From a virus (Duplodnaviria; Caudoviricetes), in the IMG/VR virus record IMGVR_UViG_3300044448_008510, positions 1 to 27,892 of that record: a stretch of 27,892 nt of DNA. One strand, 5' to 3'. Positions within the stretch are counted from its first letter, which is position 1. Each line of letters starts with the position of its first letter. Shown here one piece after another: positions 1-27,892 of this stretch. The translations under genes and the position numbers were made by a program. The notes below the pieces were generated by a model that had not been told where the DNA came from, did not search any database, and was given only the letters and a program-made list of their open reading frames with translations.

Positions 1-814
1 AAAATTGCTTAGTTTTGATATTATTTAAATATATTTCAGCAGGATTAACACCAGCTAAAGTAGCAAAATAAGTACCTCCTCCTAGTCTAGGGTTACACTC
101 AATAAGTTTAGGTTTACCATCCTTATCTTCTTTCCATTGTATGCAACAGGGTCCCTGTATTTTTAAAAACTTACATAATTTTTCTGATTTATTTTCTAAA
201 TATTTATGTCTTATAATACTACCCTTAACAGAAATACCCGCTTTTATTCCATTTCTTTTTCGTACTATAGTACCTAAAGATATACTTTTATGGTCGCAAA
301 AAACATCAACTGTATATTCTTCTCCAGGTAGATATTCCCATAAATGATTATCTTTAGGAGGAGTAATTAGTTTAACACCCCTAGCTCCAGAAGATTCATC
401 GGGTTTTTGTAAAACATTAGAAATTATAAAAGGCATATTAAATTTTTTATGTAATTTTTTCCAAAATTTAAATTTATTATTACATAATTTAATAGTTTCT
501 AAAGGAGATATCCAAACTTTTATATTACTATCTAATAAATATTTTTTATGTTTTGAAATTAAACCTAAAACTGCTTCATCTACAGGAAGTATACAATTAA
601 TGTTATTTTTAATTATTATATCTTTTATAATACCCCAGGGATTAGATAATTCTTTTATAGGTGGTATAACATAATATTTATCAGATAAAAATAACCCCGC
701 CGCCATGTTATCACAATCTATACTTATAATGTTATGGTTTTGGTTTAAATCCCTAATGGATTTTATTAGTCCTATTGCCGCCGGACCCCCCGCTGAAGAT
801 ATTAATACATTCAT
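1..814 (-). CDS. ATP-grasp ligase, carbamoyl-phosphate-synthase-like/PylC-like; runs off the window edge (3' end missing)
   Basis: Not in the ORF track. Hand translation from ATG at 814 (TAATG overlap with the SDR stop) gives MNVLISSAGGPAAIGLIKSI...SIDCDNMAAGLFLSDKYYVIP...QKPDESSGARGVKLI...WEYLPGEEYTVDVF...CIQWKEDKDGKPKLIECNPRLGGG, open to the window edge. KP..SG..G, EY..G.EY and IE.NPR.GG are ATP-grasp motifs. Confidence 0.85.
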   Translation of the reverse strand, partial: MNVLISSAGGPAAIGLIKSIRDLNQNHNIISIDCDNMAAGLFLSDKYYVIPPIKELSNPWGIIKDIIIKNNINCILPVDEAVLGLISKHKKYLLDSNIKVWISPLETIKLCNNKFKFWKKLHKKFNMPFIISNVLQKPDESSGARGVKLITPPKDNHLWEYLPGEEYTVDVFCDHKSISLGTIVRKRNGIKAGISVKGSIIRHKYLENKSEKLCKFLKIQGPCCIQWKEDKDGKPKLIECNPRLGGGTYFATLAGVNPAEIYLNNIKTKQF

Positions 815-1461
815 TAAAAAAGAAAGTTTGAATGACCACCATCAAAATTAATGGTAACCCCATTTAAATATTTAATATTATTTTTAATAATTTCTCTAGT
901 GAATATACCAATTTCTTCTACGGTTCCCACCCTATTTAGTGGAAGTTTTTGTTCTAATTTACCCATATCAGAAACTAATCCTCTAAGTCTATCGGTATCA
1001 ATAGGACCAGGGGCTATATTAATAGTAGTAATATTATTTTTTGCAAATTCTTTACTTAAACATTTTAACACACTAATAAAAGCTGTTCTATATGCATTTG
1101 ATAGTAATAATTTTCCATCTGGCTCTTTAACATTATACGATGAAATTAAAAAAATATATCCTCCTTTATTTATTTTAATTTCTTGTAAAATTTTAAAAAA
1201 ACCATAAAATAACTGATTATGGTATTTATCACAATCTTCCCTAGTAATATCTTTAAATTTTTGAGAAGGGGGACCACCTGTATTTAATACTAAGATATCC
1301 GTTGATGGGTTATTATTAATAAATTTACTAACATTATCTATATTAGATGTATCTAAATCTTTAGTTGATGTTCTTATTACATTTAAATTTAAGGTTTCTA
1401 GGGAATCAGCAATTCCTTTTCCAATACCTCTACTACCTGCTAATACTATTGCTTTTTTCAT
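814..1461 (-). CDS. Short-chain dehydrogenase/reductase, FabG-like atypical subgroup
   Basis: N-terminal AGSRGIGKGIA Rossmann motif, DILVLNTGGP, NIAPGPIDTDR and NFDGG. The canonical YxxxK is replaced by SNAYR. Confidence 0.85.
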   Translation of the reverse strand: MKKAIVLAGSRGIGKGIADSLETLNLNVIRTSTKDLDTSNIDNVSKFINNNPSTDILVLNTGGPPSQKFKDITREDCDKYHNQLFYGFFKILQEIKINKGGYIFLISSYNVKEPDGKLLLSNAYRTAFISVLKCLSKEFAKNNITTINIAPGPIDTDRLRGLVSDMGKLEQKLPLNRVGTVEEIGIFTREIIKNNIKYLNGVTINFDGGHSNFLF

Positions 1462-1464
1462 AAT

Positions 1465-2061
1465 TTATAATTTTATATCAATAAACACTTTATTTCCACT
1501 TTTATTATAATAATATAGAGATTCTTTTCCTGGGAAATAAAAAGCTTTTACAAATTTTGTTATATTTTTTTGTTTTTCTAAATCTTTATACTTATAAATT
1601 TTACAATGTTTTGTTTGGGGTTTTACTAAAAAATCTTTATTTAATAACTTAAGATACCAATTTTTAAACATTTGATATGTAAGTTCCATTCCCTTAGCAT
1701 GTAAACTATAAGCCGTATCATGGGGCAAAATAGGGAATTCTTGAATTTCAATTATATCACCAGTATCAATTCCTTCATTTATTAAATGAAGTGTTGTTCC
1801 TGTTTTACTTTCCCCATTAATTAAAACCCAACTATAAGCTCCAACTCCCCTATATTCGGGCAATATGGCAGGATGAAAATTATAACAGGGTCTTTGTTTT
1901 ATAAAATCTTCTTTTAAAATTTTATCATATAATACAGAAATAAAAATATCACAATCTTCAATCGAATTAGTTAATTGAAAATTTTTAGGAGTATTTTTTT
2001 TAGCCCATTCTATACATTTATTACCTATTTGTTTAGCACTTCCTATATAAACTTTTTTCAT
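1465..2061 (-). CDS. Formyltransferase (Fmt/PurN fold), probably NDP-aminosugar N-formyltransferase
   Basis: NFHPAILPEYRG and TLHLINEGIDTGDII formyl-THF motifs; 198 aa with no Fmt tRNA-binding domain; sugar-gene context. Confidence 0.85.
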   Translation of the reverse strand: MKKVYIGSAKQIGNKCIEWAKKNTPKNFQLTNSIEDCDIFISVLYDKILKEDFIKQRPCYNFHPAILPEYRGVGAYSWVLINGESKTGTTLHLINEGIDTGDIIEIQEFPILPHDTAYSLHAKGMELTYQMFKNWYLKLLNKDFLVKPQTKHCKIYKYKDLEKQKNITKFVKAFYFPGKESLYYYNKSGNKVFIDIKL

Positions 2062-2795
2062 TATATTTTATTTTTTATTTTTGTCTTAATCCCAGTTCCA
2101 ATTGCATGTTTTAAAATTTTTAAATTATTTACAACTGTTTGTACATCATTTAATGCAATCGCATGTTCATCATCTGGGTATTTTACGGGCCAATGTGAAT
2201 TGCCATCCTTAACATAAAATAATATATCACTAGGAGAATAACATAAAGACATGTATAGGGTATTTAAATTATCACAATGATTCCCATATGAAACTTTACA
2301 ATTATATTTTTCTTTAAGTGTAGTTATAGCTTTTAAATTACAATCATTAATTTCATGGGATAATTGAGTATGATTTAAAACTATGTTTTTATTATTTTTA
2401 TACTTATTCATAAAAATTTTAATATCTTGGTCTGAGCTAAGTCCCGTGGATACTATTATTTTTTTATTTAAAGATAATAATTTATCCATAAGTTTTGTAT
2501 TAGCCATATCATTACGAATTACTTTATAAAAATCAACGTTAATAGATTCAAAAAAATCAATTTTTTGAAAATCGGCTAAAGCAATTCCAAATTTTTTATT
2601 TGTATTTTTTATTTGTTTAGATAATTCTATATAATCCTTATCTTCTAATCTATACTTTGGATTTCTATCATAATATTCTTTTTCTCTAACTTGGAAAGTA
2701 ATCCCATCAACTTTAGTATTGAATAAATCCATTAACATAATTTCTGCAGAAGAAAATACCCCTAAATGATTCATTCCTATTTCAGCTATTATCAT
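2061..2795 (-). CDS. Divergent NeuB-family (nonulosonate synthase-like) protein, no SAF domain
   Basis: IIAEIGMNHLG, IIVSTG, NLKAITTLK and SYGNH match NeuB. KFQ is changed to TFQ and the E-[KR]-H motif is absent. Confidence 0.75.
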   Translation of the reverse strand: MIIAEIGMNHLGVFSSAEIMLMDLFNTKVDGITFQVREKEYYDRNPKYRLEDKDYIELSKQIKNTNKKFGIALADFQKIDFFESINVDFYKVIRNDMANTKLMDKLLSLNKKIIVSTGLSSDQDIKIFMNKYKNNKNIVLNHTQLSHEINDCNLKAITTLKEKYNCKVSYGNHCDNLNTLYMSLCYSPSDILFYVKDGNSHWPVKYPDDEHAIALNDVQTVVNNLKILKHAIGTGIKTKIKNKI

Positions 2796-3430
2796 AATAA
2801 TTTTTTAATTAATTGTAAATCATCTTTATTATCAACTTGAAAACTTTCATAATATGGCATTTCTACTATGCCAATATTTTTACTGTATCTTAATTTAGAT
2901 TCTAAAAGATTTTCTTTTGTTGTAATATAAAAAGCTCCATTTTCAACATATAATTCTTGTTTATCTTGTCTTCGAGGTCTTTTATTAATATCCCATTCAT
3001 AAGGCTGTGAATCTTTTGTCCACCTAGGTTGCCAGTGTTCCTTATAAGCACTAAATACTGAATCATACTTATTTAGCATCTTGAGTCCTATATTAATATA
3101 TTTACTTTTTAATAAAGGAGAAGTAGGTTGGATAAAAACTAAAATATCAAATTCATAATTTTTTGCAAAATGTACTAAAGCAGCATCCGGCATTATTATA
3201 TCATTTGATAATTCTTTAGGGCGAGTTATAACTTTAGCTCCACATTTTTCACTTACATCTTTTATTTGTCTATCTTCAGTACTTACCCAAGTTTCACTAA
3301 CCTTAGAATTTTGTGAAACATTAATAGTATATTGTATTAATGGTTTTTCCCCTATATTTAAAATATTTTTATTTGGGATGCCCTTACTTCCTCCTCTAGC
3401 AGTTATTAATGAAACTATTTTTTTACTCAA
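2792..3430 (-). CDS. neuA: Acylneuraminate (CMP-nonulosonate) cytidylyltransferase
   Basis: ITARGGSKGIPNKNI, VSTED, RPKELS, QPTSPL, RPRRQD and ENGAFY; single domain of 212 aa. Confidence 0.93.
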   Translation of the reverse strand: MSKKIVSLITARGGSKGIPNKNILNIGEKPLIQYTINVSQNSKVSETWVSTEDRQIKDVSEKCGAKVITRPKELSNDIIMPDAALVHFAKNYEFDILVFIQPTSPLLKSKYINIGLKMLNKYDSVFSAYKEHWQPRWTKDSQPYEWDINKRPRRQDKQELYVENGAFYITTKENLLESKLRYSKNIGIVEMPYYESFQVDNKDDLQLIKKLL

Positions 3431-4385
3431 AATCTTCTATTTTTTTAGGTCCTTCACTAATGTGCATTTTAAATAATTTTTCTTGAATTGTATTATTATA
3501 AAAATCAGAATTATCTAAAACATTTTTAAATTGGTATCTTAAATGTAAATTTCTTTTTCCCCATTTCCAACCCCATCTATCTTCAAATACTTCATGAACA
3601 TTAGTACTTCTAGAATAATTTATATCACTAATTAGCTTAATAGAATTTTTTAGGGTACCACTATCATGGTAAACGGAAAGATAAGGAAAACATACATTAA
3701 ATATATTATATAACATAAATTGGTGAGCTATGTCGTCTGTATTTAATAATCTACCCTTATACTCAACATCTAATGATATTTTTTTTCTAAATAGTTTTCT
3801 ATTAACACATACAGATTGCCAATTTGGAACCTCTATTACAAAATAATCACTTGTATAATAATCCTCAGGTAAATCCTTATACCACCCTGAGTAAGGGGGA
3901 TCCAAAATACCATCAACTAAACAACCTCTTCCTGGGACTGGATTACCTGGGGCTTTAATTTTTTTACTATTATTATAATGTTGATAATTACTAAATCCAA
4001 ATAAACCTACTTTTTTTTCTAAAAAATTATATTGGTCAATAGTTTGATTTAATTTATTAAAAAAATCTTTTTGAAAAGGAAAACAATCATTTTCAAAAAA
4101 TAATATCCAATTAGATTTTATGTTATTATCCAATAAATAATTATCCGCACTTTTGAATGCTGAAAAAATTGGGGCTTGGGCATTTTGATTAACAAAAGGA
4201 TTTATCCAGGTAATATTATCATATTTTTGACATAAATTCCTTAATAATTCTTTTTGTTCAGGTAAAGAATTATCATCAAAAATTAATATTGAAATTTTAT
4301 TAAAGTTATCCATAGAATATTTAAAAAGAAAATTTTCAAACATTTCATACTGATTTTTAACACAAAATAAAACTACAAAATTCAT
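3423..4385 (-). CDS. Putative GT-A/GT2-like glycosyltransferase
   Basis: ILIFDDNS, WILFFENDCF (DxD-like) and late DD...VYH motifs; sits between neuA and neuB. Confidence 0.6.
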   Translation of the reverse strand: MNFVVLFCVKNQYEMFENFLFKYSMDNFNKISILIFDDNSLPEQKELLRNLCQKYDNITWINPFVNQNAQAPIFSAFKSADNYLLDNNIKSNWILFFENDCFPFQKDFFNKLNQTIDQYNFLEKKVGLFGFSNYQHYNNSKKIKAPGNPVPGRGCLVDGILDPPYSGWYKDLPEDYYTSDYFVIEVPNWQSVCVNRKLFRKKISLDVEYKGRLLNTDDIAHQFMLYNIFNVCFPYLSVYHDSGTLKNSIKLISDINYSRSTNVHEVFEDRWGWKWGKRNLHLRYQFKNVLDNSDFYNNTIQEKLFKMHISEGPKKIEDFE

Positions 4386-5203
4386 TTACCCCTTAAAGTT
4401 TTTCTTTTTAATAATTCACTTTTAAATAATTCTCTTTCTTTTCCTTCTAACCCCAGAGCTAATTCTATATCTCTTATTCCTTTTACTAATTTAAATAGTC
4501 CTGAGGGTTCAACTGAAGCTACTTGATCCGATCCCCACATAGTTCTATCTAAGGTAATATGCCTTTCAACCCATGTTACACCCAAAGGTATAGTAGCAAA
4601 AGTAGTTACAAGCCCAAATTCATGTCCACTATAGCCCACTTCTTTTTTAAACTTATTTTTTAGCCAAGTAATATAATTTAAATTTAATTCATTAATTGGG
4701 GAAGGATATGTAGAATTAGTATGCATTATAACATTAGGATTGCAATATTTTACACAATTTTCTATTTCTTTTTCTGTAGACATGCCTGTTGAAACTATAA
4801 GATAATTAAATTTTTCTCTAGCATATTGACATAACTCTTTATTTGTTATTAAAGCCGATGGGATTTTAGCTAAATTATTATATTGAGACATAAAATCAAC
4901 CGAATCTTTATCCCATACAGAAGCAAACCAACCTATATTTTTTTCTTTACAATATTTATCTATTTCATCATATTCTTTTTTTCCAAATTCAATCTTGTGT
5001 TTATATTGTAAGTAAGTCATTTCTCCCCAGGGAGTAGATTTGGGTTTATTTTTTTGTTCTTCAGGAACACAGATATCGGGATTACGTTTTTGAAATTTAA
5101 CATAATCACATCCAGATAAAACCGCCGCGTCTATAATTTTTTTACATAAATCTAAATTACCATTATGGTTTATTCCTATTTCTCCTATAATTTTTACTTT
5201 CAT
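4382..5203 (-). CDS. neuB: N-acetylneuraminate/nonulosonate(-9-phosphate) synthase, no SAF domain
   Basis: IIGEIGINHNG, VKFQKR, KIPSA, VSTGMS, HTNSTYP, GYSGHE and VERHITLDRTMWGSDQ; all canonical motifs present. Confidence 0.93.
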   Translation of the reverse strand: MKVKIIGEIGINHNGNLDLCKKIIDAAVLSGCDYVKFQKRNPDICVPEEQKNKPKSTPWGEMTYLQYKHKIEFGKKEYDEIDKYCKEKNIGWFASVWDKDSVDFMSQYNNLAKIPSALITNKELCQYAREKFNYLIVSTGMSTEKEIENCVKYCNPNVIMHTNSTYPSPINELNLNYITWLKNKFKKEVGYSGHEFGLVTTFATIPLGVTWVERHITLDRTMWGSDQVASVEPSGLFKLVKGIRDIELALGLEGKERELFKSELLKRKTLRGK

Positions 5204-7782
5204 ATTAATTTTGGGTTTTGTAAATCTTTTATAGATATAAATCTAACTCCTTTATCTATCAAATCCTTATTATTATTTTTAATCTCTTTAATAAAGTTCC
5301 AAGCCATTACAATTATAACATCAGGAAATATTTCCCGTGTTTTTTCTTTTGAAAATATAGGGATTCTTACACCTGGAAGGGTTTTATTATGTTTTAATGG
5401 GTTATCTTCTATTATATAAGTTATTTCTTCAGATGTAATACCATAATAATTTAAAGATGTAGTAGCTTTAGCAGGTGAACCATATCCTACTAAAGTTAAT
5501 CCTTTATCTTTTAAATTTTTAATATTATTAACTACATTTATTTTCGCTTCCTCAATTCTAGATGCAAATTCTAAATAAGTAGTATAGTCAGTTAAACCTT
5601 CATTTTTTTCATTTTGCAAATATTCTTCTAAATTGCTTTTAGAATTCATATACGCAGGATTCATATGTCTTTGAACATATACTCTTATTGAACCTCCATG
5701 GGTATCAACATGGTCTATGTTTGTGATAAATAGTCCTAATCGTGAAAAGAAATTATTTAATGATGTAACACTCCAATAATTAACATGTTCATGATATATA
5801 TTATCAAATGTTAAATCCTTAATAGTATCTAATAGATATTGAACTTCAACAATAAAAACACCATCATCTTTTAATATTTTAAAAGCAGATTTAGCTATTT
5901 CTTCTAATTTATCTGAGTGAGCAAATACATTTGAAGCCATTATAATGTCAGCATTTCCATGGTTTTTTATAATATCTTCAGCTACAGTATTATTAAAATA
6001 AGAGTTAATAGTATTAATTCCTTTTTCATTAGCTATTTTACAAATATTTTTAGCCGGTTCAATACCTAATACCTTAATTCCCTTTTCTTTAAAAGGTAAA
6101 AGAGCAATACCATCATTTGAACCTATATCTACAATAAATGAATTAGTATTTAATTTAAAATCATTAATATAATCATTAGCAGCTTTTTTAAAATGATCTC
6201 TAAAACTTTTAGCTGTAGATGAAACATATAGATAATGGTCAAACATTTTTTTAGCCGGAACAATATATGACAATTGACAATTATGAGATTCGGGACAATA
6301 CATCATTTCTAATGGGTATAGCTCATCGGGTTGGTCTTGTGAATCCAATAAATTATTAGCTAAAGGAGACATACCTAATGAAATTACAGGTCTAAGTTTT
6401 CCTTTTTTTCCTGCTCTATCAATAGATGAATAATTAGATATAATTTCTTTTCTAAACCTTTCATTAACTAATTTGTAAGGAATAGTATGAGTGACCCCAT
6501 AATTTTCATGTTCACGTTCACCTCTTACTAAATTTAAGAAAATTGAATCTTCTAAAAATACCATAGTATGAGCTACATTTGGTTTAATTACTGCAATATC
6601 TCCTTCTTGGATTAATTGAGTATGAATTTGTGCCTTAGGATTAGATAAATCCTTAATAACACTTACATATTTTCCCTTAATTAATAAACATTTTTGTTCC
6701 TGTATTGGGTGATAATGATTAGCTCTAACTGTGCCTTTTTTAGATTCAATGTATCCTATTAAATTAATAGGTTCAGTTAGCTCATAATTACTAATTTTAC
6801 CCCTTTCATCAATATATTCCTTGCCCCCTTGTACTGTATATTCTAATTCAGGTCTAATTTCTTGTTTAGACCAATTGTTAATCATTTCTTTTAAACATTG
6901 TTCTAAACTATATCTAAATTTAAATCCAGTTGATAATAATTTTTCGTTAGAAATAGTATAACCTAAATTAGGGATTTCATCATTAGTCTCTATTAACTCT
7001 AATGAAGGTTTTATCTTTTTACATAATTCTGCAACTTCTTTAACAGTCATATTTTCTTTTGATAAATGAAATGTTTCTCTTTTAATATCTTTTCTTTCAG
7101 CCATAAATTTAAAACATCTTGCTACATCTACTAAAGGTACTAAACTTTTTAATTGTACCCCTCCCGAAAATAATTTAATAATTCCATTTTGAGAGGCTAT
7201 TTTAGAAAATAAATTAGGCATTATTCCTACTCTCATAGTATCCGTAGAATACCCATATACTGAAGCTAATCTTAATATTATATAATTTAAATTTGATTTA
7301 AGTAAATCTTTTTCTGTTGTATCTTTACCTTTAGAATAAGTAAGTATAGGAGTAGTAGGTTCTGTTTCTTTAACATCATAAACAGTTTTATCAAATCCTT
7401 CATAAACAACATGAGTAGAAGGAAATATCAACTTACATTTACCAGAAACATTATTAATTATATTTCTAGAACCCTCTATACCAACTTTTTCAATTAATTC
7501 ATTTTGACCAAATTTTTCTTCTAATTTAGTATATGCCACATCAGTTATACCCGCAAAATGGTATACTATGTCTGCATCTTTTACCAATTTACTAATAAAT
7601 TCTTTATTTAAAATATCTCCCTGTCTAAAATCAAATCCCCAATCTCTTAATTGTTTAACTCTTTCGGATACAAATCTTTTGTCCGTTACTATTATATTTT
7701 TATATCTAGTTTCTCCCGAGTAGAGTTTACATAACTCAGTTCCTATATAACCTAATCCACCTGTTATTACTATTTTTTCCAT
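5200..7782 (-). CDS. Three-domain fusion: NAD-dependent sugar epimerase/reductase + cupin (isomerase/epimerase) + NDP-sugar C-methyltransferase
   Basis: aa about 1-305: TGGLGYIG, STHVVY, YSKGK. aa about 310-440: DERG, RANHYH, PNVAH (cupin). aa about 450-860: SLGMSPLANN, YPL, DIGSNDG, GIEPA, NVFAH, IYHEH, HGGSIR, GYGSPAKATT, VMAWNF. Confidence 0.88.
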   Translation of the reverse strand: MEKIVITGGLGYIGTELCKLYSGETRYKNIIVTDKRFVSERVKQLRDWGFDFRQGDILNKEFISKLVKDADIVYHFAGITDVAYTKLEEKFGQNELIEKVGIEGSRNIINNVSGKCKLIFPSTHVVYEGFDKTVYDVKETEPTTPILTYSKGKDTTEKDLLKSNLNYIILRLASVYGYSTDTMRVGIMPNLFSKIASQNGIIKLFSGGVQLKSLVPLVDVARCFKFMAERKDIKRETFHLSKENMTVKEVAELCKKIKPSLELIETNDEIPNLGYTISNEKLLSTGFKFRYSLEQCLKEMINNWSKQEIRPELEYTVQGGKEYIDERGKISNYELTEPINLIGYIESKKGTVRANHYHPIQEQKCLLIKGKYVSVIKDLSNPKAQIHTQLIQEGDIAVIKPNVAHTMVFLEDSIFLNLVRGEREHENYGVTHTIPYKLVNERFRKEIISNYSSIDRAGKKGKLRPVISLGMSPLANNLLDSQDQPDELYPLEMMYCPESHNCQLSYIVPAKKMFDHYLYVSSTAKSFRDHFKKAANDYINDFKLNTNSFIVDIGSNDGIALLPFKEKGIKVLGIEPAKNICKIANEKGINTINSYFNNTVAEDIIKNHGNADIIMASNVFAHSDKLEEIAKSAFKILKDDGVFIVEVQYLLDTIKDLTFDNIYHEHVNYWSVTSLNNFFSRLGLFITNIDHVDTHGGSIRVYVQRHMNPAYMNSKSNLEEYLQNEKNEGLTDYTTYLEFASRIEEAKINVVNNIKNLKDKGLTLVGYGSPAKATTSLNYYGITSEEITYIIEDNPLKHNKTLPGVRIPIFSKEKTREIFPDVIIVMAWNFIKEIKNNNKDLIDKGVRFISIKDLQNPKLI

Positions 7783-7783
7783 T

Positions 7784-8401: not shown

Positions 8402-8402
8402 T

Positions 8403-9596: not shown

Positions 9597-9598
9597 AT

Positions 9599-11699: not shown

Positions 11700-11715
11700 T
11701 TTTTATTTATTAATT

Positions 11716-11744
11716 AATATACAAAAAAATAATTAAAATTACAA
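11716..11744 (-). promoter_or_regulatory. Candidate sigma70-type promoter TTGTAA-N17-TATATT
   Basis: Lies in the largest intergenic gap of the island (11700-11751), with exact 17-nt spacing, 16 nt upstream of the PhyH ATG. The AT-rich background weakens the call. Confidence 0.5.
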
Positions 11745-11751
11745 ATTATAT

Positions 11752-12516: not shown

Positions 12517-12534
12517 TTATTTGTATTTAGTTTT

Positions 12535-14955: not shown

Positions 14956-14957
14956 AA

Positions 14958-15620: not shown

Positions 15621-15632
15621 TTTTTGTATTAA

Positions 15633-17726: not shown

Positions 17727-17732
17727 AACCTA

Positions 17733-20681: not shown

Positions 20682-20684
20682 ATC

Positions 20685-21146
20685 TTAACTAGGTAGTACC
20701 CCAATGTACGAAAGAGCATCCATAAAGTCACGTTCTTCAAATTGTTTCATTGTAGTCATGTCCATTCTATGTTTATAGTATTGATCTTTTTTTCCTGGGA
20801 TAGGATATTTTAATTTTTCTTCTTCTGTTACCTCTACAGCTTTAACTGCTGCCCATTTCCAATTTTTAGTTGTAGATCCATTTGCAAATACCATTCCTTG
20901 TTTTGGTAAATTTACTGTTGAAGGAAACCATACTTGACCTGTTTCGTCTTCATATCTAAGATCTTTATATAACTCTGGTAAAGTAGCTAATTGATCATCC
21001 ATTATTTCCTCTTCTTCTCTCATTAAAGTATTAGATTGAAAACCACAACCATAACAAAAATAATTATTTATATCCTGATTTACTTCAGTTACATAACATG
21101 CATCCGAACCACATCGGGGACATATGTCTAATTTATCTGAGTTCAT
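20685..21146 (-). CDS. Hypothetical protein with N-terminal zinc ribbon
   Basis: CPRC and CYGC pairs; clean ORF with ATGA overlap. Confidence 0.7.
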   Translation of the reverse strand: MNSDKLDICPRCGSDACYVTEVNQDINNYFCYGCGFQSNTLMREEEEIMDDQLATLPELYKDLRYEDETGQVWFPSTVNLPKQGMVFANGSTTKNWKWAAVKAVEVTEEEKLKYPIPGKKDQYYKHRMDMTTMKQFEERDFMDALSYIGVLPS

Positions 21147-22471
21147 GTTTCTATTTTTTTAAGTTTAGGAAGTTTTAATTTTGGAAGTTCAGATTTAGTA
21201 TTTCCTCCTCCTACTTTTTTAAGTTTTGGTAATTGTAAAGGTACCTGTTTAGGAGCAGTTGTTATATTTTCTTTTAATATTTTACTAAATTTTTCTTTCA
21301 TTTTAACATATGTAAAATTTTCTTTAGCAAAATTACCTTGCTGTTTAGCTCCATGAATCCAATTTTTATAATTCTTATGCATATCTTTTAAAGCCTTCCC
21401 TAAAGCCATAGTATCAACATTAAACCATTTAGCTCCATCTACAAACCAATCATTTTTAACACTTTTATGAATATCTCCTAAAGTGCCGGGTAGTAATACA
21501 CTCATATCAGGTTTAAGAAAATCTATATGACCTGACCAGCCTGTAGCTATTATTGGTTTTTTAGTTTGAGTAAATTCTAATAATGGTCTACCAAATCCTT
21601 CTCCTTTGGTAATGTTAACCATACATTTTACTTTAGGATGGTTATATAATTCATTCATTTCTTCATCTAAAAGATCACCATGTATTAAATAAACTTTAGG
21701 TAGTTTACCCTTTACTGTTTTTTTAATATCATTTATCTTTTTTAGAATAATATCCCTATCCATATATGATACTACTCCTCCAGAAGTTTTCATTATAAGG
21801 GCAGGTTGATTTTGTTTATTTTTAAATGTTTCTAAAAATGATTTTACTAATAAACCTACATTTTTTCTATCATGACCAAATGCTCCCTGCATCCAATGTC
21901 CTACAAATAAAAAGCAAAATTGTTCCTTTATCTCTGGTAAGTCTAAATATTCATTAGTTTTTTTCCAAGTTTGTTCATTAAATCCCTCAAATAATACTTC
22001 AGTTTTAGTATTTAATTCTATACTTTTTACTACTTGGTTAGTTTTATTATCTTTTTGTTGAAATTTACTATCTTTTAATACTTGAATAGTATGTTTAGAA
22101 GATCCAACTACCATATTCATTCTATTACACCCTTCTACCCATTCAGCCCTACATAAAGTAGTTTCTATACCTGCTGTCATTCCTATACTATAATGTCCCT
22201 GAGGCATGAATTCATTTGGAATTGTTATTTGCATCCAAATATCTGGTTTTGGGTATTGTTTATTAGGTTCTGGTTGCCATAAATATTTATTTAAAAACTC
22301 CCAATCTTTATGATCTTCTATAAAGCCCCAAGGGGTAGCACCCCATCTTTGCGGCATTATTTTTACATCATATTTATCCATTTCAATAATAGCTTTTACT
22401 ACATCTCTTGATCTTGCTCCATAACCCGAGTAGGTATCTATTGGACAACTTATTATAAATGTTGGTTTCAT
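21143..22471 (-). CDS. GT4-like (GT-B) glycosyltransferase with repeated basic C-terminal tail
   Basis: SGYG, FLFVG, RKNVGLL and KGEGFGRPLLEF...PIIATGWSGHIDF. Confidence 0.85.
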   Translation of the reverse strand: MKPTFIISCPIDTYSGYGARSRDVVKAIIEMDKYDVKIMPQRWGATPWGFIEDHKDWEFLNKYLWQPEPNKQYPKPDIWMQITIPNEFMPQGHYSIGMTAGIETTLCRAEWVEGCNRMNMVVGSSKHTIQVLKDSKFQQKDNKTNQVVKSIELNTKTEVLFEGFNEQTWKKTNEYLDLPEIKEQFCFLFVGHWMQGAFGHDRKNVGLLVKSFLETFKNKQNQPALIMKTSGGVVSYMDRDIILKKINDIKKTVKGKLPKVYLIHGDLLDEEMNELYNHPKVKCMVNITKGEGFGRPLLEFTQTKKPIIATGWSGHIDFLKPDMSVLLPGTLGDIHKSVKNDWFVDGAKWFNVDTMALGKALKDMHKNYKNWIHGAKQQGNFAKENFTYVKMKEKFSKILKENITTAPKQVPLQLPKLKKVGGGNTKSELPKLKLPKLKKIET

Positions 22472-22472
22472 A

Positions 22473-23921
22473 TTAATATACTAAATTATGTGTTTGTACT
22501 TTTCTAATATCTTCATCTGCATCTATTACTTCAAATGCTATCCTAGGTTTCCAGGTATTAAATAACTCATTAGCAAATTTTATAAATCTTTTACCTTGAT
22601 GTTCAGCTGTAAATCCTGCTTCTTCACTTAAGCACCATTCTCTGGCTTTAACACCTAATTCTTTTCTTTTTTCTTCACCTAAATCATACACTTCCCTTAT
22701 CCTATCTGCTGCATCTTCCGGCTTACATCTATCATCCCAAATATAAGGTGTAATAGGTGATCCCTGAATTGATCTTGAAGCAGGATAACATGGAAAAGCC
22801 CATTCACCATGTTTTTTATATTTTCCTGTATTATTTGAAGGTACTTCAGGTGATGGTGTAAACCATTTTCCATTTTCATCTTTAAATCTCATTTGATCTT
22901 GCATCCCACCAGTAACATTAGCTATAATAGGATTACCTGCTAACATTGCCTCAGTTAAGGTTAATCCCCATCCTTCATTTGATGTTAATAAAATTTGACA
23001 ATCAGAAATATTATACAATAAATTTAATTGTTCAGTTGACCATCTTTTTTCATCAATTACTATAGCATTAGGGTATTTATCTCCAAATAATAGCTCACTT
23101 ACTACGGGAAGGTCTGTTCCCGCTTCATGTACTTTTTCAGTATGAAGTAAAAATCTACACTTATCTGCCTTTTCTTTAGGTAAACTATCTAAAAACATTC
23201 TAAATGCCCACATAGTATCTGGGATTTGCTTTCTTCTAATATTTCTAGAATTAAAAAATAAAACAAAATTAACTTCATCTTTACCAAATAACTCAAATTT
23301 CATTTTTTCTATTGCATTTATCTCTTCAGTAGTTTCTAAAGGACGGTAAATATTATGATTTAAACCATGAGGTAAATATTTTACTATTTTATCCTTAACT
23401 TTATCTCCTAATACAATCTTATTAATATTTACTGTTTGTTTTGAAATTCCCATTAATAAATCACATGATTCATAAAATGCTCTATTATATAAGGGAGCGG
23501 GGTAATCGTCCCAAATATTAAGGTATATAATAGGCATATTTTTTCTTATTTCGCCTTCAGCATTAAATAACCACATAAAATATCTTGGATCCGTAATAAG
23601 CATTAAAGCATCTGGTTTTTCTTGATTAATAATTTGTCTTACTAGTTCTATATTACCATAACCATCAACTGGGAACAATTTTATATTAGAATCAGTTAAA
23701 CCCGTTTGTTTATTTACTTCATTAGATAAATCAAACACTTTACCCTTATCTGGGTGTTTAATAGCTCCTGCTATTTGTACCCAGTTAAAATGTTGAGCAG
23801 TATGCATTACTATTTCTTTACCCACTGTGGCTATTCCTGAATGTACTCTAATATCATCACATATTAAGAGTATTTTCTTCCTTTTATCTTTAGGAAGATA
23901 CTTAAAATCTTTATTAATCAT
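22473..23921 (-). CDS. GT4-like (GT-B) glycosyltransferase
   Basis: HSGIATV, PHG, SRNIRRKQIPD and NEGWGLTLTEAMLAGNPIIANVTGGMQDQ (E-x7-E motif). Confidence 0.88.
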   Translation of the reverse strand: MINKDFKYLPKDKRKKILLICDDIRVHSGIATVGKEIVMHTAQHFNWVQIAGAIKHPDKGKVFDLSNEVNKQTGLTDSNIKLFPVDGYGNIELVRQIINQEKPDALMLITDPRYFMWLFNAEGEIRKNMPIIYLNIWDDYPAPLYNRAFYESCDLLMGISKQTVNINKIVLGDKVKDKIVKYLPHGLNHNIYRPLETTEEINAIEKMKFELFGKDEVNFVLFFNSRNIRRKQIPDTMWAFRMFLDSLPKEKADKCRFLLHTEKVHEAGTDLPVVSELLFGDKYPNAIVIDEKRWSTEQLNLLYNISDCQILLTSNEGWGLTLTEAMLAGNPIIANVTGGMQDQMRFKDENGKWFTPSPEVPSNNTGKYKKHGEWAFPCYPASRSIQGSPITPYIWDDRCKPEDAADRIREVYDLGEEKRKELGVKAREWCLSEEAGFTAEHQGKRFIKFANELFNTWKPRIAFEVIDADEDIRKVQTHNLVY

Positions 23922-23931
23922 ATTTTATTTT

Positions 23932-24120
23932 TTATAACTCAAGGTTATTGTGATTATTAATTTGTCTTCTAAAATCATCATCTGTAAGATACAAATAAAT
24001 TGCACGATCGGCAAGTTTCTGGAAAGAAAATTTACGTTTTACGCACTCTATTTTAAAATTTTCAAATAAATCACTTTTAACTTTTACACTGGTTAGTGTC
24101 ATGTCTTTTTTTGCTGTCAT
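23932..24120 (-). CDS. Small ribbon-helix-helix-like DNA-binding protein
   Basis: TLTSVKV (alternating strand) followed by SDLFENFKIECVKRK and SFQKLADRAIYLYL helices. The ATG at 24120 is preferred over the track's 24153 because it leaves an intergenic gap, but the start is uncertain. Confidence 0.65.
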   Translation of the reverse strand: MTAKKDMTLTSVKVKSDLFENFKIECVKRKFSFQKLADRAIYLYLTDDDFRRQINNHNNLEL

Positions 24121-24167
24121 AATCTTTAATTTAGTAAAACTATTTATATCCATACATACGTATAGAC

Positions 24168-25115
24168 TTAAAAATGTTCACCTAATCCACAAAGTTTTTT
24201 ATCGTTTTTATAGGGGCAAAACCCACAGTTCCATTTTGAAGGATTTGGTAACATTTCTTTTGTTGAGTATTCATTTTTTATAAAACATTCACTCATAAAT
24301 TCTTCTATTGCTTTAGTTGCTCTACTTATTTTTATTTTACCCGAAGGTGGAGAATACATTTGAAATCGTTTTTGTGGATAATCCCCCTCAGTATAAACTT
24401 TTCTTCTTGTAATAAAGAACTCAATATCAATATCTTTTATATCTACTCCAAATTGTTCTGCAAAGAATTTTTTGTATAATATAAGTTGGAATTGTTTGTC
24501 TTCATCATTTTTAACATAATTTAATTTCCAACCATTAGTAGATGTTTTAATATCTATTATTTTAAATTTATTTAACCTTTCACTGTACATTACAATGTCA
24601 AGATAACCCATAAATAAAATATTAGGATTATATTTTACAGGAGGCATTAGTACAGGAGTTTCTATTCCTACTAAATGCCAACCTCGTTTTGAAAAATATT
24701 TACCTCTATGTTTTTTTAGGTAATTTAGTATTTCAACTCCATCTTGATAAAATTCACTTAATTCACCTGGATTAGAAAAATGTTGTTTGTTGTTTTTCTT
24801 ATATTCTTCTTGGTAGTGGGCTCTTAACTGATCTTTAAGTATTTCTAATATGTCTTCTCTATCAGCTGCTGCAGCACTTTTTTCATACATTACTTTAATG
24901 TAATGTTGAAATGCCTCATGTAATGCTTTTCCAAATACAGTATGAATACTAGGTGTATATACTTTATGACCATCTCTATATTGTAAAGCCCATTGTTTAG
25001 GACATTTCTTCCACATTGTATATTGTGAATATGAAATATTTTTTTGATAAGAATAGTCTAATTCTCTTTTAGGGGATAATTGTATCTCCTTTACTATAGC
25101 TGGTGTTTTAGCCAT
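24168..25115 (-). CDS. PD-(D/E)xK nuclease, Cas4/RecB/AddB-like, with probable 4-Cys Fe-S cluster
   Basis: ISYSQ...CP, FGKALH, E, GYLD, IIDIKT, QLILY and C-terminal CGFC...C (1+3 Cys arrangement). Confidence 0.88.
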   Translation of the reverse strand: MAKTPAIVKEIQLSPKRELDYSYQKNISYSQYTMWKKCPKQWALQYRDGHKVYTPSIHTVFGKALHEAFQHYIKVMYEKSAAAADREDILEILKDQLRAHYQEEYKKNNKQHFSNPGELSEFYQDGVEILNYLKKHRGKYFSKRGWHLVGIETPVLMPPVKYNPNILFMGYLDIVMYSERLNKFKIIDIKTSTNGWKLNYVKNDEDKQFQLILYKKFFAEQFGVDIKDIDIEFFITRRKVYTEGDYPQKRFQMYSPPSGKIKISRATKAIEEFMSECFIKNEYSTKEMLPNPSKWNCGFCPYKNDKKLCGLGEHF

Positions 25116-25451
25116 TTATTTTTTCCACTTGTTACGTCCTACTAACATACCAATTATACCATAATTAGCTATATCTATAAACGTGTCTTCCATTCCTTCA
25201 CCTTTAACAAAATTTCTACCATTAGTAAGTAAATTTCTTAATCTTGAAATTTTATCTGTTAACCTAATAGCTAAACCTGTTAATGAAAATTTTTTATCGT
25301 TTTCTTTAGTTAAATCCCCTCCTAATGAAATGTTTTGTAAACCATAATCCATATGTTTGGCTGCAAACATTTTATACATTTCATCTTGAATAACTTTAAA
25401 TTCCTGGGATAGTTCAGGGTATTCTTCTTCAAATGCTTTTACTGGGTCCAT
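25116..25451 (-). CDS. DUF1599 / nucleotide-modification-associated domain 1 (Nmad1) protein
   Basis: KHMDYG, IRLTDKISRL.NL and EDTFIDIANYGII. Confidence 0.8.
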   Translation of the reverse strand: MDPVKAFEEEYPELSQEFKVIQDEMYKMFAAKHMDYGLQNISLGGDLTKENDKKFSLTGLAIRLTDKISRLRNLLTNGRNFVKGEGMEDTFIDIANYGIIGMLVGRNKWKK

Positions 25452-25452
25452 A

Positions 25453-25680
25453 TTAAAAAGGTAGTGGTTGATCGCCCCAATATTTATTTAATGTTTCTAA
25501 TTTATCATCAGCTTCGACTAATAATTCTAATGCCTCATTTGCATCTTTAAAAAAATCATTTGCTGTGTGATCACCAATTCCTACCGCTTGGTTTTCTAGT
25601 AAATCTAATGCCATTAAAGCTTTTGATTTATCTGCTTCTGCTTGCCTAATTAAGGCTTCTATAATTTTACTTTTTTTCAT
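25453..25680 (-). CDS. Small helical phage-type hypothetical protein
   Basis: Helical hairpin with a central VGIGDH turn; overlaps its neighbour by ATGA. Confidence 0.7.
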   Translation of the reverse strand: MKKSKIIEALIRQAEADKSKALMALDLLENQAVGIGDHTANDFFKDANEALELLVEADDKLETLNKYWGDQPLPF

Positions 25681-25829
25681 GTTTTCATTACATTTTGATA
25701 TGCTTGTTCGTATTGTTGTTCTAAAGTGAGTTTAGGGTTTTGAAGTTTTAATTTATTTATTTCTTCAAACATTTGTTTTCTTTTTCCATGTTCTTCAGCA
25801 CTCCAAAGTAATTCTTCTAATTTACTCAT
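25677..25829 (-). CDS. 50-aa hypothetical protein (missing from the ORF track)
   Basis: MSKLEELLWSAEEHGKRKQMFEEINKLKLQNPKLTLEQQYEQAYQNVMKT; fills the gap exactly, with ATGA overlaps at both ends. Confidence 0.8.
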   Translation of the reverse strand: MSKLEELLWSAEEHGKRKQMFEEINKLKLQNPKLTLEQQYEQAYQNVMKT

Positions 25830-26251
25830 TTTAATAACTTTTTTATTTCTTTATTATCTAATCCCATCTCTCCTAAAATAACAGGCATCTCTTTATCCGT
25901 TATAACATTAATATATGAACGAGCATCTGAGGTTCCAACCTCATAGTATTCTGCTATTTTTTCTACAAGTTCTTTATTTATCTGCTTATTTTTAGTCTTT
26001 ATATACTGTAGCCAGACTTTACGTTTTGGTATCATTTCTTTATAAAAATTATATATTTCTTTTTTCATAGTTGGTAACATACTTTGCGCATAATCTGCGA
26101 TTTCAACGTAATATACATGCATACTAACAAATCTATGCACCATATATGAATTAAACTTTTCCCAGTCGTTATCCGTAAATTCAGAAGCAGGTGTTTTATA
26201 CAACGTTATGTGTTGTAACCAATCAAATATATTTTTAATCTTATCTTTCAA
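25826..26251 (-). CDS. Putative clamp-loader small subunit (T4 gp62-like)
   Basis: FDWL..I, FNSYMVHRFVSM, YNFY...IP and IAEYY.V....A..YI resemble gp62-like proteins; close to the clamp-loader ATPase. Confidence 0.6.
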   Translation of the reverse strand: MKDKIKNIFDWLQHITLYKTPASEFTDNDWEKFNSYMVHRFVSMHVYYVEIADYAQSMLPTMKKEIYNFYKEMIPKRKVWLQYIKTKNKQINKELVEKIAEYYEVGTSDARSYINVITDKEMPVILGEMGLDNKEIKKLLK

Positions 26252-26497
26252 TTAAATAGTAATGTCTTTATAATCTTCTCTAATTTCTTTAGGTAAAGAA
26301 TCTTTAATTATTTTCTTAGTCTCTAAATCATAAAATACAGGTATTGGGAGCATTGCATCTTCATCTGTCCCTGCTACGAATTTAGATACTTTTCTTAATA
26401 CAAATGCCTGACCGAATAATAATCCTCCGTCAAAACCTTCTATCATTGTTGTATTTTTAAAATCTATATTTAGTCCTTGTTGTTGTGGGCCTTTCAT
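26252..26497 (-). CDS. Phage-type hypothetical protein
   Basis: 81-aa ORF in the operon; F.QAF.LRKVSKF..G...A..PIPVF pattern. Confidence 0.7.
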   Translation of the reverse strand: MKGPQQQGLNIDFKNTTMIEGFDGGLLFGQAFVLRKVSKFVAGTDEDAMLPIPVFYDLETKKIIKDSLPKEIREDYKDITI

Positions 26498-26502
26498 TTT
26501 TC

Positions 26503-27339
26503 TTATTTTATATTATTAATAATTGCTCTTCCTTCTTGTCTTTCCCAATCTCTATCTGTTCTAACATCATTATTTTTACAATCAACTGCTGTTAGCATTC
26601 TTGGAAACACATTTAAATCATGAGCTAGTGATATTAAAGCTTTTATATCTTTAGGAAAACAGTGTCCCCCATACCCAAAGTCACCATCAGGTCCAGGTAC
26701 ACTCCAATGTGAATATCCTAATCTTTCATCTTGAATAGCATACTCAATAATTTTATCATAGTCTATATTTAATTCCTCACATATTTGATACATTTCATTT
26801 GCAAATGATACTTTAGTTGCTAAAAAACTATTAGTAACATATTTAACCATTTCAGCATAAGTTGAATCAGTTTTTATAATTTTAACTTTTGGAAAAGCTT
26901 TTACAAATATTCTACGAACTTGTGAAGTTGGTTTTTTAGGGCCCCCTATTATGATTCTGTTTTGGTTTTTGAAATCATTAACAGCATTTGCTTCAGTTAA
27001 AAATTCAGGATTAAAGACTATTTGTAAATTTTTATATTTTACATTCCATTCTTTAGTAGTACCAGGAGGTACTGTTGATTTAATTATTATGATTTTAGAT
27101 TCTTTTCTTAAATCTAATTTATTTAGAACATTTTCTACTATGTTTAAATGGCATTTCCCATTTTTTTCCATTGGGGTAGGTAAACATGTAAATATAATGT
27201 CTGATTTAGATGCTAATTCATTAAGAGAATTACAAGTAGACGGTAAAGCTATATCATAAGTTTCAATTTTAAAAAAATCCTTTAATCCATTATAAACAGC
27301 ATTACCTACAAAACCTTGTCCTATAATTCCTATTTTCAT
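26503..27339 (-). CDS. UDP-glucose/GDP-mannose 6-dehydrogenase family, short form without the C-terminal domain
   Basis: GQGFVG, CLPTP, KSTVPPGT, FNPEFL, AEMVKY..NSFLATKVSFANE and GYGGHCFPKD (catalytic Cys); 278 aa. Confidence 0.9.
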   Translation of the reverse strand: MKIGIIGQGFVGNAVYNGLKDFFKIETYDIALPSTCNSLNELASKSDIIFTCLPTPMEKNGKCHLNIVENVLNKLDLRKESKIIIIKSTVPPGTTKEWNVKYKNLQIVFNPEFLTEANAVNDFKNQNRIIIGGPKKPTSQVRRIFVKAFPKVKIIKTDSTYAEMVKYVTNSFLATKVSFANEMYQICEELNIDYDKIIEYAIQDERLGYSHWSVPGPDGDFGYGGHCFPKDIKALISLAHDLNVFPRMLTAVDCKNNDVRTDRDWERQEGRAIINNIK

Positions 27340-27892
27340 ATCACTTGTGGTTTTTTTATTTCAATTATTTTTGCTAATGCACTTGCGATATTGACTTCCT
27401 TATCAATACGAAAGTTAGAATGATATTGATGCTCATTCAAAATTATTGCTATACTTCCTTCTCTACCAATGGCATATTCCGAAGCATGATCAAATAATGC
27501 TCTATATAATTCTTCAAAATCACGTACTTGAGAATCGGCTATTATTTGTCTTAATTTTCTAAAATCGGTTTTCTTTAGTTTTAGCTCTTCTATAATCTGT
27601 TTTATATAGTTTGATGATACTAAAATAGATTCATCCAATACTAATTCATTATCCTTAGTTGATAACTGAATTGTATTTAGCATTTTTCGTATATCCGGAT
27701 GATGTTTATTAACTATGTTAACAAGAGCTTCAATTTCGAACTTTGTTTGTTCTTTATCTAGTATCTCTTTTATGTGTTTTGCTACTTCTTTTTTACTTGG
27801 TGGTACTATTTTTAATGTTTGGCACCTTGATTGAAGCGGATCTATAATACGCTCTATAAAATTACAAGTGAGGATAAAACGTGTGTTACGTT
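27336..27892 (-). CDS. Sliding-clamp loader ATPase subunit (RFC-small/T4 gp44-like); 5' end outside the window
   Basis: The frame stays open upstream of the track's ATG at 27683: RNTRFILTCNFIERIIDPLQSRCQTLKIVPPSKKEV...HPDIRKMLNTIQ. This includes the SRC arginine finger and sensor-2 motifs. Confidence 0.92.
   Translation of the reverse strand, partial: RNTRFILTCNFIERIIDPLQSRCQTLKIVPPSKKEVAKHIKEILDKEQTKFEIEALVNIVNKHHPDIRKMLNTIQLSTKDNELVLDESILVSSNYIKQIIEELKLKKTDFRKLRQIIADSQVRDFEELYRALFDHASEYAIGREGSIAIILNEHQYHSNFRIDKEVNIASALAKIIEIKKPQVI

Follow-up and report, generated by a model that had tools for sequence, protein, structure and literature searches.

What does a tailed phage build with a long run of sugar genes, and on which acceptor? 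The question is raised by IMG/VR virus record IMGVR_UViG_3300044448_008510, a stretch of 27,892 nucleotides that we analyzed at its full length (the window). Its 36 long genes all lie on the minus strand, make up 99% of the sequence, and extend from the clamp-loader gene on the far right to an ATP-grasp gene truncated at the left end, with glycosyltransferase (GT), donor-synthesis, and tailoring genes among them; no tRNA gene was found in the window. The original prediction, made from the sequence alone, was that a large phage builds a complex glycan on a soluble acceptor. From comparison with related phages and from structure prediction, we consider it probable that the phage O-glycosylates its own virion proteins and that the chains are extended by cassette-specific fucose and sialic-type sugars.

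A predicted pair of glycosyltransferases

Two adjacent genes, GT4a (22473..23921; PF00534) and GT4b (21143..22471; PHROG 2170, E 2e-16), are central to this reading. The predicted model of GT4a, our candidate priming enzyme, has a GT-B fold of the retaining type (predicted local distance difference test [pLDDT] 86.8). Its top structural match is chlorovirus B736L (Z 32.0, root-mean-square deviation 2.8, 372 aligned), tied with MshA and BshA (Z 31.7-32.0), and B736L is the only solved structure matched by both GT4 profiles. The EX7E motif is kept in both proteins, and residues E291 and E299 of the second GT-B transferase, GT4b, are invariant in 25 sequences. GtfA, GtfB, and the T4 alpha-glucosyltransferase are not among the matches listed in the fold or profile searches, which leaves kinship possible.

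GT4a and GT4b are predicted to form one heterodimer. The predicted complex scored 0.84, versus 0.00 for the best of three controls; the mark used for such scores is reached by 116 of 157 solved pairs and by 2 of 215 mismatched pairs, a calibration that applies here only approximately, because we supplied our own alignments. The score may also reflect fold-level memory of solved GT-B dimers. At least 96% of contacts recur between runs, partner pLDDT is at least 89, and the GT4a tail (residues 462-469), which is low-confidence when GT4a is folded alone, is predicted to pair with GT4b residues 259-268. In phage RM378, GT4a is followed by a gene of weak similarity (E 1e-4), and the slot holds no annotated island, an arrangement that suggests that the pair is the minimal unit of the system.

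A Ser/Thr-Gly-Ser motif in virion proteins

Complete relatives of the window phage are 160-166 kb long. In the virion regions of two of them, G002 and G003, many proteins are rich in Ser and Thr and show an excess of [S/T]-[G/A]-S but not of [S/T]-[G/A]-T. We computed observed/expected ratios of [ST]GS against per-protein shuffles. The ratio was at least 2.4 in 8 of 11 GT4a-positive genomes or fragments, namely G002 (2.58), G003 (3.40), Flavobacterium phage immuto, the closest cultured relative (2.52), Mel-JY01 (2.42), RM378 (2.63), G008 (2.53), G009 (2.82), and G005 (3.07), with LR756508 (part; 1.54), G010 (1.00), and G007 (0.98) falling below. None of nine GT4a-negative phages reached it (range 0.80-1.58): S-SM2 (1.18), phiM12 (1.30), Acj9 (0.86), P-SSM2 (220 of 252 kb; 1.15), Melnitz (1.22), PTm1 (0.80), Lak-A1 (140 of 542 kb, code 15; 1.58), CM1 (120 of 320 kb; 1.32), and LR756511 (135 of 595 kb; 1.19). 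SGS and TGS rank first and fourth among the enriched tripeptides of the positive set and stand outside the top 25 of the negative set. The permutation S[ST]G is not enriched, nor are the host Bacteroidota motif D-[S/T]-x and the motif N-x-[S/T] in Ser/Thr-rich proteins (0.81-1.13). The motif has hydrophobic flanks. A DNA-repeat artefact was ruled out as its source, given 37-65 different 9-mers per genome and the use of both Ser codon classes (TCN and AGY).

Tail sheaths show where the motif lies. We collected 86 sheaths from 80 loci and, with a reference, reduced them to 73 at <90% identity. The 73 sheaths hold 530 sites in 79 columns, with 3-14 sites per sheath, and the motif clusters in the N-terminal (outer) part: residues 50-449 of the reference hold 524 of the 530 sites, and residues 450-714 hold 4. 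This C-terminal stretch corresponds by alignment to T4 gp18 423-651 and presumably includes the tube-facing domain. Across this boundary the motif drops about 100-fold, versus about 7-fold for the control [ST][GA]T. TGS, TAS, and TSS replace one another at fixed columns, which is the behavior expected of a sequon. GT4a was present in both of the two sheath contigs that we checked.

The motif is also depleted elsewhere. Low-Ser/Thr proteins of six positive genomes contain 39 [ST]GS versus 66 expected (z -3.5), whereas those of six control genomes contain 95 versus 93 expected. Island proteins have 46 [ST][GA]S versus 66 expected, and the window alone has 1 versus 4, which is not significant. 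Avoidance in enzymes would be expected from selection imposed by a promiscuous cytoplasmic transferase and is not predicted by a structural explanation of the motif. A virion protein is, on these sequence patterns, the likely glycan acceptor.

A fixed core and an exchanged island

To describe the locus across the clade, we compared the best 80 of 295 viral loci that encode a GT4a relative, many of which end early. The order of clamp loader, nuclease, small gene, GT4a, GT4b, Zn protein, and GT2 is kept in these loci, and core genes are retained in 57-80 of the 80 (GT4b in 76, the Zn protein in 68, GT2 in 57). The island that follows behaves differently. In the window it comprises at least 24 genes over about 20 kb, 12 of which have no match in the 80 loci, with most of the others matched in at most two, and relatives whose GT4a is 85-90% identical carry unrelated islands. 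Judged from gene content and order, the cluster is made of two layers: a core, GT4a-GT4b(-Zn)-GT2, that stays fixed and an island that is hypervariable. GT2 is only 57-59% identical in relatives whose Zn gene is 91-95% and whose flanking genes are 85-95% identical, yet it is 71% identical to that of the distant immuto, which places an exchange boundary at or in the GT2 gene.

Seventeen islands are visible from end to end; each has 4-15 genes and is closed by a conserved block of a DksA-like and an HNH gene. The 401 distinct island proteins of the relatives and the window's 24 fall into 202 clusters. In a Pfam scan of 148 island representatives (147 of 156 selected plus one GT29), families GT2, 7, 9, 10, 11, 25, and 29, Core-2/I-branching, and GlcNAc-transferases were matched, along with nucleotide-sugar enzymes and methyl-, acetyl-, formyl-, sulfo-, and LicD-like tailoring enzymes. 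In one relative, the Zn gene and GT2 are separated by an inserted gene (L048:13154-14422) of the PF11397 GlcNAc-transferase family, which we take to be kin of cytoplasmic protein GlcNAc-transferases.

A search for a bacterial home for GT4a in 185,579 species genomes found only four loci, all in metagenome-assembled genomes and all with phage-core neighbors. These four species representatives (L389-L392) probably contain mis-binned phage DNA.

Membrane components

The absence of membrane machinery noted in the original prediction held up. None of the 36 window proteins reaches a 19-residue Kyte-Doolittle mean of 1.8 (the top value, 1.69, lies in the sialylmotif-S region of the GT29 protein), and Wzx, Wzy, Wzz, ABC exporter, and WecA-type initiating transferase families had no match among window proteins in Pfam, PHROGs, or NCBIfam. 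This character is common to the clade: none of the relatives' 401 island proteins has three or more hydrophobic segments, three have one, and flippase, polymerase, and exporter families matched 0 of the 148 representatives in Pfam. The same hydropathy test does detect proteins of 8-11 segments in other loci that share the NeuB-NeuA-NeuB-SDR cassette described below. Nothing in the 36 window proteins, the relatives' 401 island proteins, or the 17 full islands amounts to a Wzx/Wzy- or ABC-type polysaccharide locus, the left end of the window's own island lying beyond the record. The further step to membrane independence gains from the lack of multi-transmembrane proteins but does not follow from it, because many lipopolysaccharide (LPS) transferases are peripheral enzymes without transmembrane segments.

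A proposed model of virion glycosylation

We propose the following mechanism. The sites would be [Ser/Thr]-[Gly/Ala/Ser]-Ser on virion proteins. In the host cytoplasm, the GT4a/GT4b heterodimer would prime sheath, baseplate, and fiber proteins with one or more initial sugars. From then on, the GT2 allele and the transferases of the cassette would lengthen the chain stepwise, using one nucleotide-sugar for each step and involving neither lipid carrier nor export. In the window strain, Gmd, Fcl, and GT11 would supply the chain with fucose, and the two NeuB, NeuA, and GT29 with a sialic-type ulosonate; the chain may also be decorated by methyl, carbamoyl, formyl, and hydroxyl groups. Exchange of cassettes at or within the GT2 gene would yield strain-specific coats. 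For the clade as a whole, we see a somewhat better than even chance that a widespread group of aquatic T4-like phages uses GT4a/GT4b to prime [S/T]-[G/A/S]-S and swaps cassettes of 4 to more than 24 genes, giving serotype-like coats that include fucose and sialic-type sugars.

Several observations weigh against this model. For all these phages, the case is built from sequence and predicted structure. GT4a and the motif are confounded with phylogeny, since the positives form one clade in which no member without the pair was found, and z-scores treat related genomes as independent and are hence inflated. Three of the 11 positive sets fall below 2.4: G010 is a fragment that lacks the head, fiber, and baseplate block (its sheath has 10 sites), G007 is a 78-kb fragment with unchecked virion content, and LR756508 is covered for about 230 of 484 kb and has no GT4b match. 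The RM378 sheath has 1 site and that of the control P-SSM2 has 5; the sheaths of PTm1 (not found) and Lak-A1 (cut at a stretch boundary) were left out of these counts. The GT4a-negative Lak-A1 reaches a z of 2.7. Mel-JY01 (3.19) and immuto (1.56) enrich [ST]GT, so that the third position is not always Ser. GS[ST] reaches 1.68 in G009. The control [ST][GA]T is itself lower in the sheath C-terminus. The virion genes were seen in relatives only, none of them from the window's own phage, and the function of B736L is described as unproven in the sections of PMC9614988 that were covered.

Alternative explanations

The lack of transmembrane segments in many LPS transferases also suits a different reading, in which the island remodels the surface of the infected host (LPS, capsule, or host glycoproteins) by way of the host's lipid carrier, flippase, and polymerase, with a block to superinfection or changed grazing as the result. 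Similar T4-like cyanophage clusters have been read in this way (PMC12801897), and the occurrence of the NeuB-NeuA-NeuB-SDR cassette in multi-transmembrane loci (L323, L345, L347) implies that island genes are shared with bacterial surface-polysaccharide loci. We nevertheless hold host remodeling to be unlikely. It leaves the motif enrichment in virion-region proteins, the position within the sheath, and the depletion in enzymes unexplained; with no multi-transmembrane protein in 17 full islands or 401 proteins, a new repeat unit would have to rely on host flippase and polymerase; and the four GT4a loci found among species genomes all have phage-core neighbors. The virion might also be glycosylated at other sites, with [ST]-G-S being an inherited structural feature of turns in beta-rich fiber and sheath domains. 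NGT, DGT, and EGT do stand in place of SGS at some sheath columns, as turn motifs would, and both the confounding by phylogeny and the single site of the RM378 sheath agree with this explanation. Against it, Gly swaps with Ala and Ser while both flanks are retained, the sites are spread over 79 columns, and the avoidance in enzymes is limited to the positive phages, so that we give it only a small chance.

Two further explanations remain. The original prediction left the acceptor as either a virion protein or DNA; the former has gained specific support from the motif, and the latter has lost support. The DNA of immuto, which has the same core and an island of 9-10 genes, is reported to consist of dA, dC, dT, and N-formyl-dPreQ1 (fdPreQ1) in place of all dG (Cui et al., bioRxiv 10.1101/2023.04.13.536721), although a UV nucleoside profile could overlook minor or nuclease-resistant species. 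G001, from a near-identical copy of the window phage, carries early genes of that separate 7-deazaguanine pathway; homologs of FolE, QueD, QueE, QueC, and DpdA3 are found in G001 (L096:4238-7259, 2213-2908) and in G002 (L093), with DpdA3 homologs 37-38% identical to immuto's (37% in G001). QueF and DpdN had no match in the G001 and G002 stretches compared, and the 7-deazaguanine of these phages is likely, by gene content, to differ from that of immuto. Phage GTs that add mono- to trisaccharides to DNA are known, and these require 5-hydroxymethylcytosine (5hmC) (Pyle et al.). The thymidylate-synthase/hydroxymethylase family (PF00303) is absent from four of five genomes (immuto has one), and TET (PF12851) is absent from all five in a search without a positive control. 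Hypermodification of phage DNA with oligosaccharides, in the manner of 5hmC-dependent clusters, is therefore very unlikely, even though the cluster adjoins replication genes and Nmad1. Glycosylation of intracellular host proteins or small molecules as a counter-defense would be compatible with the structural matches of GT4a, among which B736L ties with MshA and BshA, two GTs that act on small molecules. We consider it highly improbable, as a hypervariable, 24-gene cassette resembling those of surface polysaccharides better suits an exposed antigen and as the motif signal is located in virion-region proteins.

Source of the window and its relatives

The window is the entire record G000, which is classed as viral and has 27.5% G+C. 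A second record, G001, matches it at 99.98% identity across 9,734 bp and continues upstream with GroEL and GroES (both also encoded by immuto), a split PolB, FolE, QueE, QueD, QueC, the DpdA3 homolog, an endolysin, and, as read from the sequence by eye, an Hsp20-like gene. Together, window and G001 contain a gp44/gp62 clamp loader and PolB replication module and no cellular housekeeping genes. Genes for the gp23-type capsid, terminase, portal, and sheath are absent from both records and present in the complete relatives G002 and G003, which share the core with the window at 50-89% identity. G002 (160 kb) encodes tube and baseplate proteins as well, and, of the five long relatives examined, three have a gp23-type capsid gene, among them the two with a completeness of at least 90%. 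The profile scan behind the gene content of G001 and G002 covered 138 proteins (126 from G002, 12 from G001). Phage origin, as originally predicted, is thus borne out by the continuation and by the complete relatives.

GT4a homologs occur in only 7 of 50,697 phage records, namely immuto (four records, 51% identity), Mel-JY01, LR756508, and RM378, and the top matches of a capsid search are the same phages. These comparisons support the view that the window comes from a large, T4-like phage genome of a clade related to immuto and RM378 and covers part of it. Its core proteins are mostly 44-54% identical to those of immuto, below the similarity expected within a genus, and it has PolB where immuto has PolA, which places it outside Immutovirus. 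Going by immuto, the host probably belongs to the Bacteroidota. The Mel-JY01 record names Microcystis as host, and relatives of that phage infect Flavobacterium and Rhodothermus; its GT4a is split into two genes (L082:18441-19932), and its proteome enriches [ST]GT above [ST]GS.

We also looked for the left flank of the window. A scan of viral contigs with the last gene gave 36 candidate stretches, none related, and a search of metagenomes with the SDR gene returned 33 loci without an identical one; the closest of these (L316, L325) run on into further soluble proteins.

Other features of the clade came to light in these comparisons. PolB is split in two with a small gene between the halves in G001 (L001:1-2070) and G002 (L093:12662-15683), is a single gene of 860-909 amino acids in G003 and G009, and is replaced at that slot by a family A polymerase in immuto. 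Several members have at least two tandem tail-sheath genes (G003, L122:16584-19998 and L123:3-1100; G005, L386; L264, L304, L308, L309, and L312). G002 (L088:2309-5119) encodes a 936-residue protein that by eye has a signal-peptide-like N-terminus and a C-terminus like those of secreted Bacteroidota proteins, with no profile match.

Replication-side and core genes of the window

The right end of the window opens with a gp44/RFC clamp-loader large subunit (27336..27890; PHROG 168, E 5e-29), whose 5' end is cut by the record end; the full 311-residue gene is present in L001, and homologs are found in 48 of the 80 loci. Next comes a short UDP-sugar dehydrogenase with no C-terminal domain matched (26503..27339; PF00984/PF03721). 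Its homologs occur in 20 of the 80 loci, mostly within islands, and on this distribution it is a mobile donor-synthesis gene inserted in the core. It is followed by a conserved hypothetical protein of 81 residues (26252..26497; 58/80 loci), the gp62-like clamp-loader small subunit (25826..26251; PF16790; PHROG 225, E 7e-15), and a 50-residue open reading frame near 25680-25830, additional to the 36 long genes, that has a counterpart of equal length at the same slot in close relatives. A conserved hypothetical protein of 75 residues (25453..25680; PHROG 1811; 43/80), Nmad1 (DUF1599; 25116..25451; PF07659; 44/80), and a PD-(D/E)XK nuclease with a four-Cys pattern like that of Cas4/AddB (24168..25115; PF12705, E 2e-18; 78/80) complete this side. 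Profiles thus confirm the replication genes named in the original prediction, except for its ribbon-helix-helix gene: the conserved 73-residue product at 23932..24153 (78/80 loci) has no profile match, and its strand-helix-helix look, judged by eye from the sequence, makes it a possible regulator of that type. The idea that the cluster is functionally attached to replication did not stand, as DNA modification is the province of separate Que/Dpd genes and the neighborhood is a conserved genome slot.

Beyond GT4a and GT4b, the core contains a conserved Cys-rich, Zn-ribbon-like protein (20685..21146) and the semi-conserved GT2 (20052..20681; PF00535). A search on the role of the Zn protein returned 3656 homologs, with no Pfam family among the 120 matches listed.

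Glycan island genes of the window

The island begins with a GT9-like transferase (19186..20055; ESM Atlas 0.96 to a GT9 cluster), a TOD1/MUCI70 (DUF616) GT-like protein (18497..19189; PF04765), and a GT8 (17733..18497; PF01501), followed by a WbuC-like cupin (17289..17726; TIGR04366, E 1e-9, below cut-off) and a short DegT-family sugar aminotransferase (16610..17308; PF01041) that belongs to a 15-member cluster of similar short forms in relatives. Both this aminotransferase (232 residues) and the UDP-sugar dehydrogenase (278 residues) are short forms with similar lengths in many relatives and look like stable minimal versions. Fucose synthesis is represented by a GDP-mannose 4,6-dehydratase (Gmd; 15633..16610; PF16363, E 3e-116; TIGR01472, 381 bits versus a cut-off of 415) and a GDP-L-fucose synthase-like protein (Fcl; 14050..14955; NF047922, E 3e-69, below cut-off), with a possible, weakly matched 2-oxoglutarate (2OG)-Fe(II) oxygenase between them (14958..15620; TIGR04324, E 0.004). 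Further along are a possible but unproven GT-A protein (13343..14053), a GT-A-fold protein (12535..13341; model pLDDT 89; Foldseek match to SpsA, E 2e-6), and a GT11 of the alpha-1,2-fucosyltransferase family (11752..12516; PF01531). The unproven protein compares with its neighbor at blastp E 5e-4 and a hhalign probability of 3.4% and has no PDB match.

A PhyH-type 2OG-Fe(II) dioxygenase (10899..11699; PF05721) precedes a GT29 sialyltransferase-like protein that, by hydropathy, lacks the N-terminal membrane anchor (10156..10899; PF00777, E 1e-33). The carbamoyltransferase is present as two genes (8403..10159). The gene for the C-terminal domain (PF16861 at 9599-10159) lies upstream of that for the N-domain (PF02543 at 8403-9596), and because it is transcribed first, the pair is not a simple frameshift of one gene. 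Then come an FkbM-family methyltransferase (7784..8401; PF05050) and an 860-residue fusion of an NDP-sugar epimerase, a middle domain, and a C-methyltransferase (5200..7782; PF01370, PF13489, PF08484). The left part holds NeuB-family ulosonate synthase 1 (4382..5203; PF03102, E 3e-65), a GT2-like transferase (3423..4385; ESM Atlas 0.98-0.99), a CMP-ulosonate synthetase of the NeuA/PseF type (2792..3430; PF02348), NeuB-family synthase 2 (2061..2795; PF03102, E 3e-21), a formyltransferase (1465..2061; PF00551), an SDR oxidoreductase (814..1461; PF13561), and the ATP-grasp enzyme cut by the record end (2..814; PF15632, PF21360). The NeuB-NeuA-NeuB-SDR arrangement (window 814-5203) recurs in metagenome loci (L316-L347) as a cassette with two short synthases and no NeuC, in phage islands as well as in multi-transmembrane loci.

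Of the roughly 11 GTs originally counted, 10 are supported, six of them above the Pfam cut-off (GT4a, GT2, GT8, TOD1/MUCI70, GT11, and GT29), with the protein at 13343-14053 being the exception. The families of Gmd, the Fcl-like protein, and GT11 point to fucose in the island product. The two NeuB, the CMP-synthetase, and the anchor-free GT29 point to a sialic-type ulosonate, for which synthase, CMP-activating enzyme, and transferase are all represented. Every nonulosonate gene scores below the NCBIfam Neu and Pse equivalog cut-offs, and NeuC had no match within the window, whose island is open at the left end. The carbamoyl-, formyl-, and methyltransferases, PhyH, the aminotransferase, and the ATP-grasp enzyme would, from their families, decorate the chain. 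The fucosylated, nonulosonate-capped structure of the original prediction remains a deduction from gene families.

Comparison with known systems

The comparisons in this section draw on those parts of the cited papers that were covered. Virus-encoded glycosylation of virions is already known from mycobacteriophages and giant viruses (PMC10117803), although glycosylated phage particles are considered rare. The window clade shares with these and with chloroviruses virus-encoded soluble GTs and donor pathways. In mycobacteriophage Che8 (Freeman et al. 2023), phage-encoded GTs are reported to place a glycan shield on capsid and tail-tube subunits; the reported sites lie at subunit C-termini, whereas in the window clade the motif sites are internal and numerous in each protein. 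This clade has in addition a predicted GT4 heterodimer and cassettes, with 4 to more than 24 genes, for making its own donors. The fibril clusters of Megavirinae (Notaro et al. 2022, PMC10117803) are likewise clade-specific, comprise 6-33 genes, and provide rare bacterial-type sugars for the particle surface. They belong to giant viruses of eukaryotes and their glycans have been shown chemically, whereas here a tailed phage is known from genes alone and exchange occurs between close strains.

Among phages, immuto resembles the window in having the PD-(D/E)XK nuclease, small gene, GT4a, GT4b, Zn protein, GT2, and sugar island in the same order at 44-71% identity, in its 7-deazaguanine genes, and in the 2.5-fold enriched motif; it differs in its family A polymerase (versus PolB) and its island of 9-10 genes (versus at least 24). 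The immuto sheath has 8 motif sites, and our search brought up no report on the glycans of this phage. The moraphages (Perez-Hernandez et al. 2025, PMC12619734) are also aquatic and T4-like, with four core GT orthogroups, variable islands, and predicted Bacteroidota hosts. Their genomes are 200-307 kb, versus 160-166 kb for complete relatives here. That study offers DNA, serotype, or virion as untested GT targets and has no motif or cassette analysis in the sections covered. The cyanophages S-SCSM2R and P-SSM2 are T4-like with large soluble GT and nucleotide-sugar clusters of up to 13 GTs (PMC12801897), and such clusters, labeled "cell wall synthesis and modification," are taken there to modify the host surface or DNA. 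Unlike the phages studied here, P-SSM2 (searched over its first 220 of 252 kb) and S-SM2 have neither GT4a/GT4b nor the motif (1.15 and 1.18).

The layout of GT4a/GT4b resembles that of GtfA/GtfB, which glycosylate serine-rich-repeat adhesins through a two-protein Ser/Thr priming complex and variable extending GTs (PMC6973325), but GT4a and GT4b are not members of that family. In the Gtf system, GtfB acts as a chaperone and DUF1975 is present in both proteins, whereas both proteins here keep EX7E and have no DUF1975 match; neither GtfA nor GtfB was among the profile matches listed for the window system, and no accessory Sec system was seen. Our literature search, which reached few subscription papers and no supplements, found no paper on this motif, heterodimer, or cassette slot.

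Implications

Because the cultured relative immuto carries both the core and the motif, the model is directly testable. If it is true, the cytoplasmic, sequon-directed O-glycosyltransferase with its three-residue tag, together with the anchor-free GT29 and the GT11, would provide tools for glyco-engineering. Clusters that are usually read as modifiers of the host cell wall or of DNA would instead be particle-surface loci under diversifying selection, and a common aquatic lineage, represented by 295 viral stretches with a close GT4a relative, would wear variable sugar coats whose attachment code can be read.

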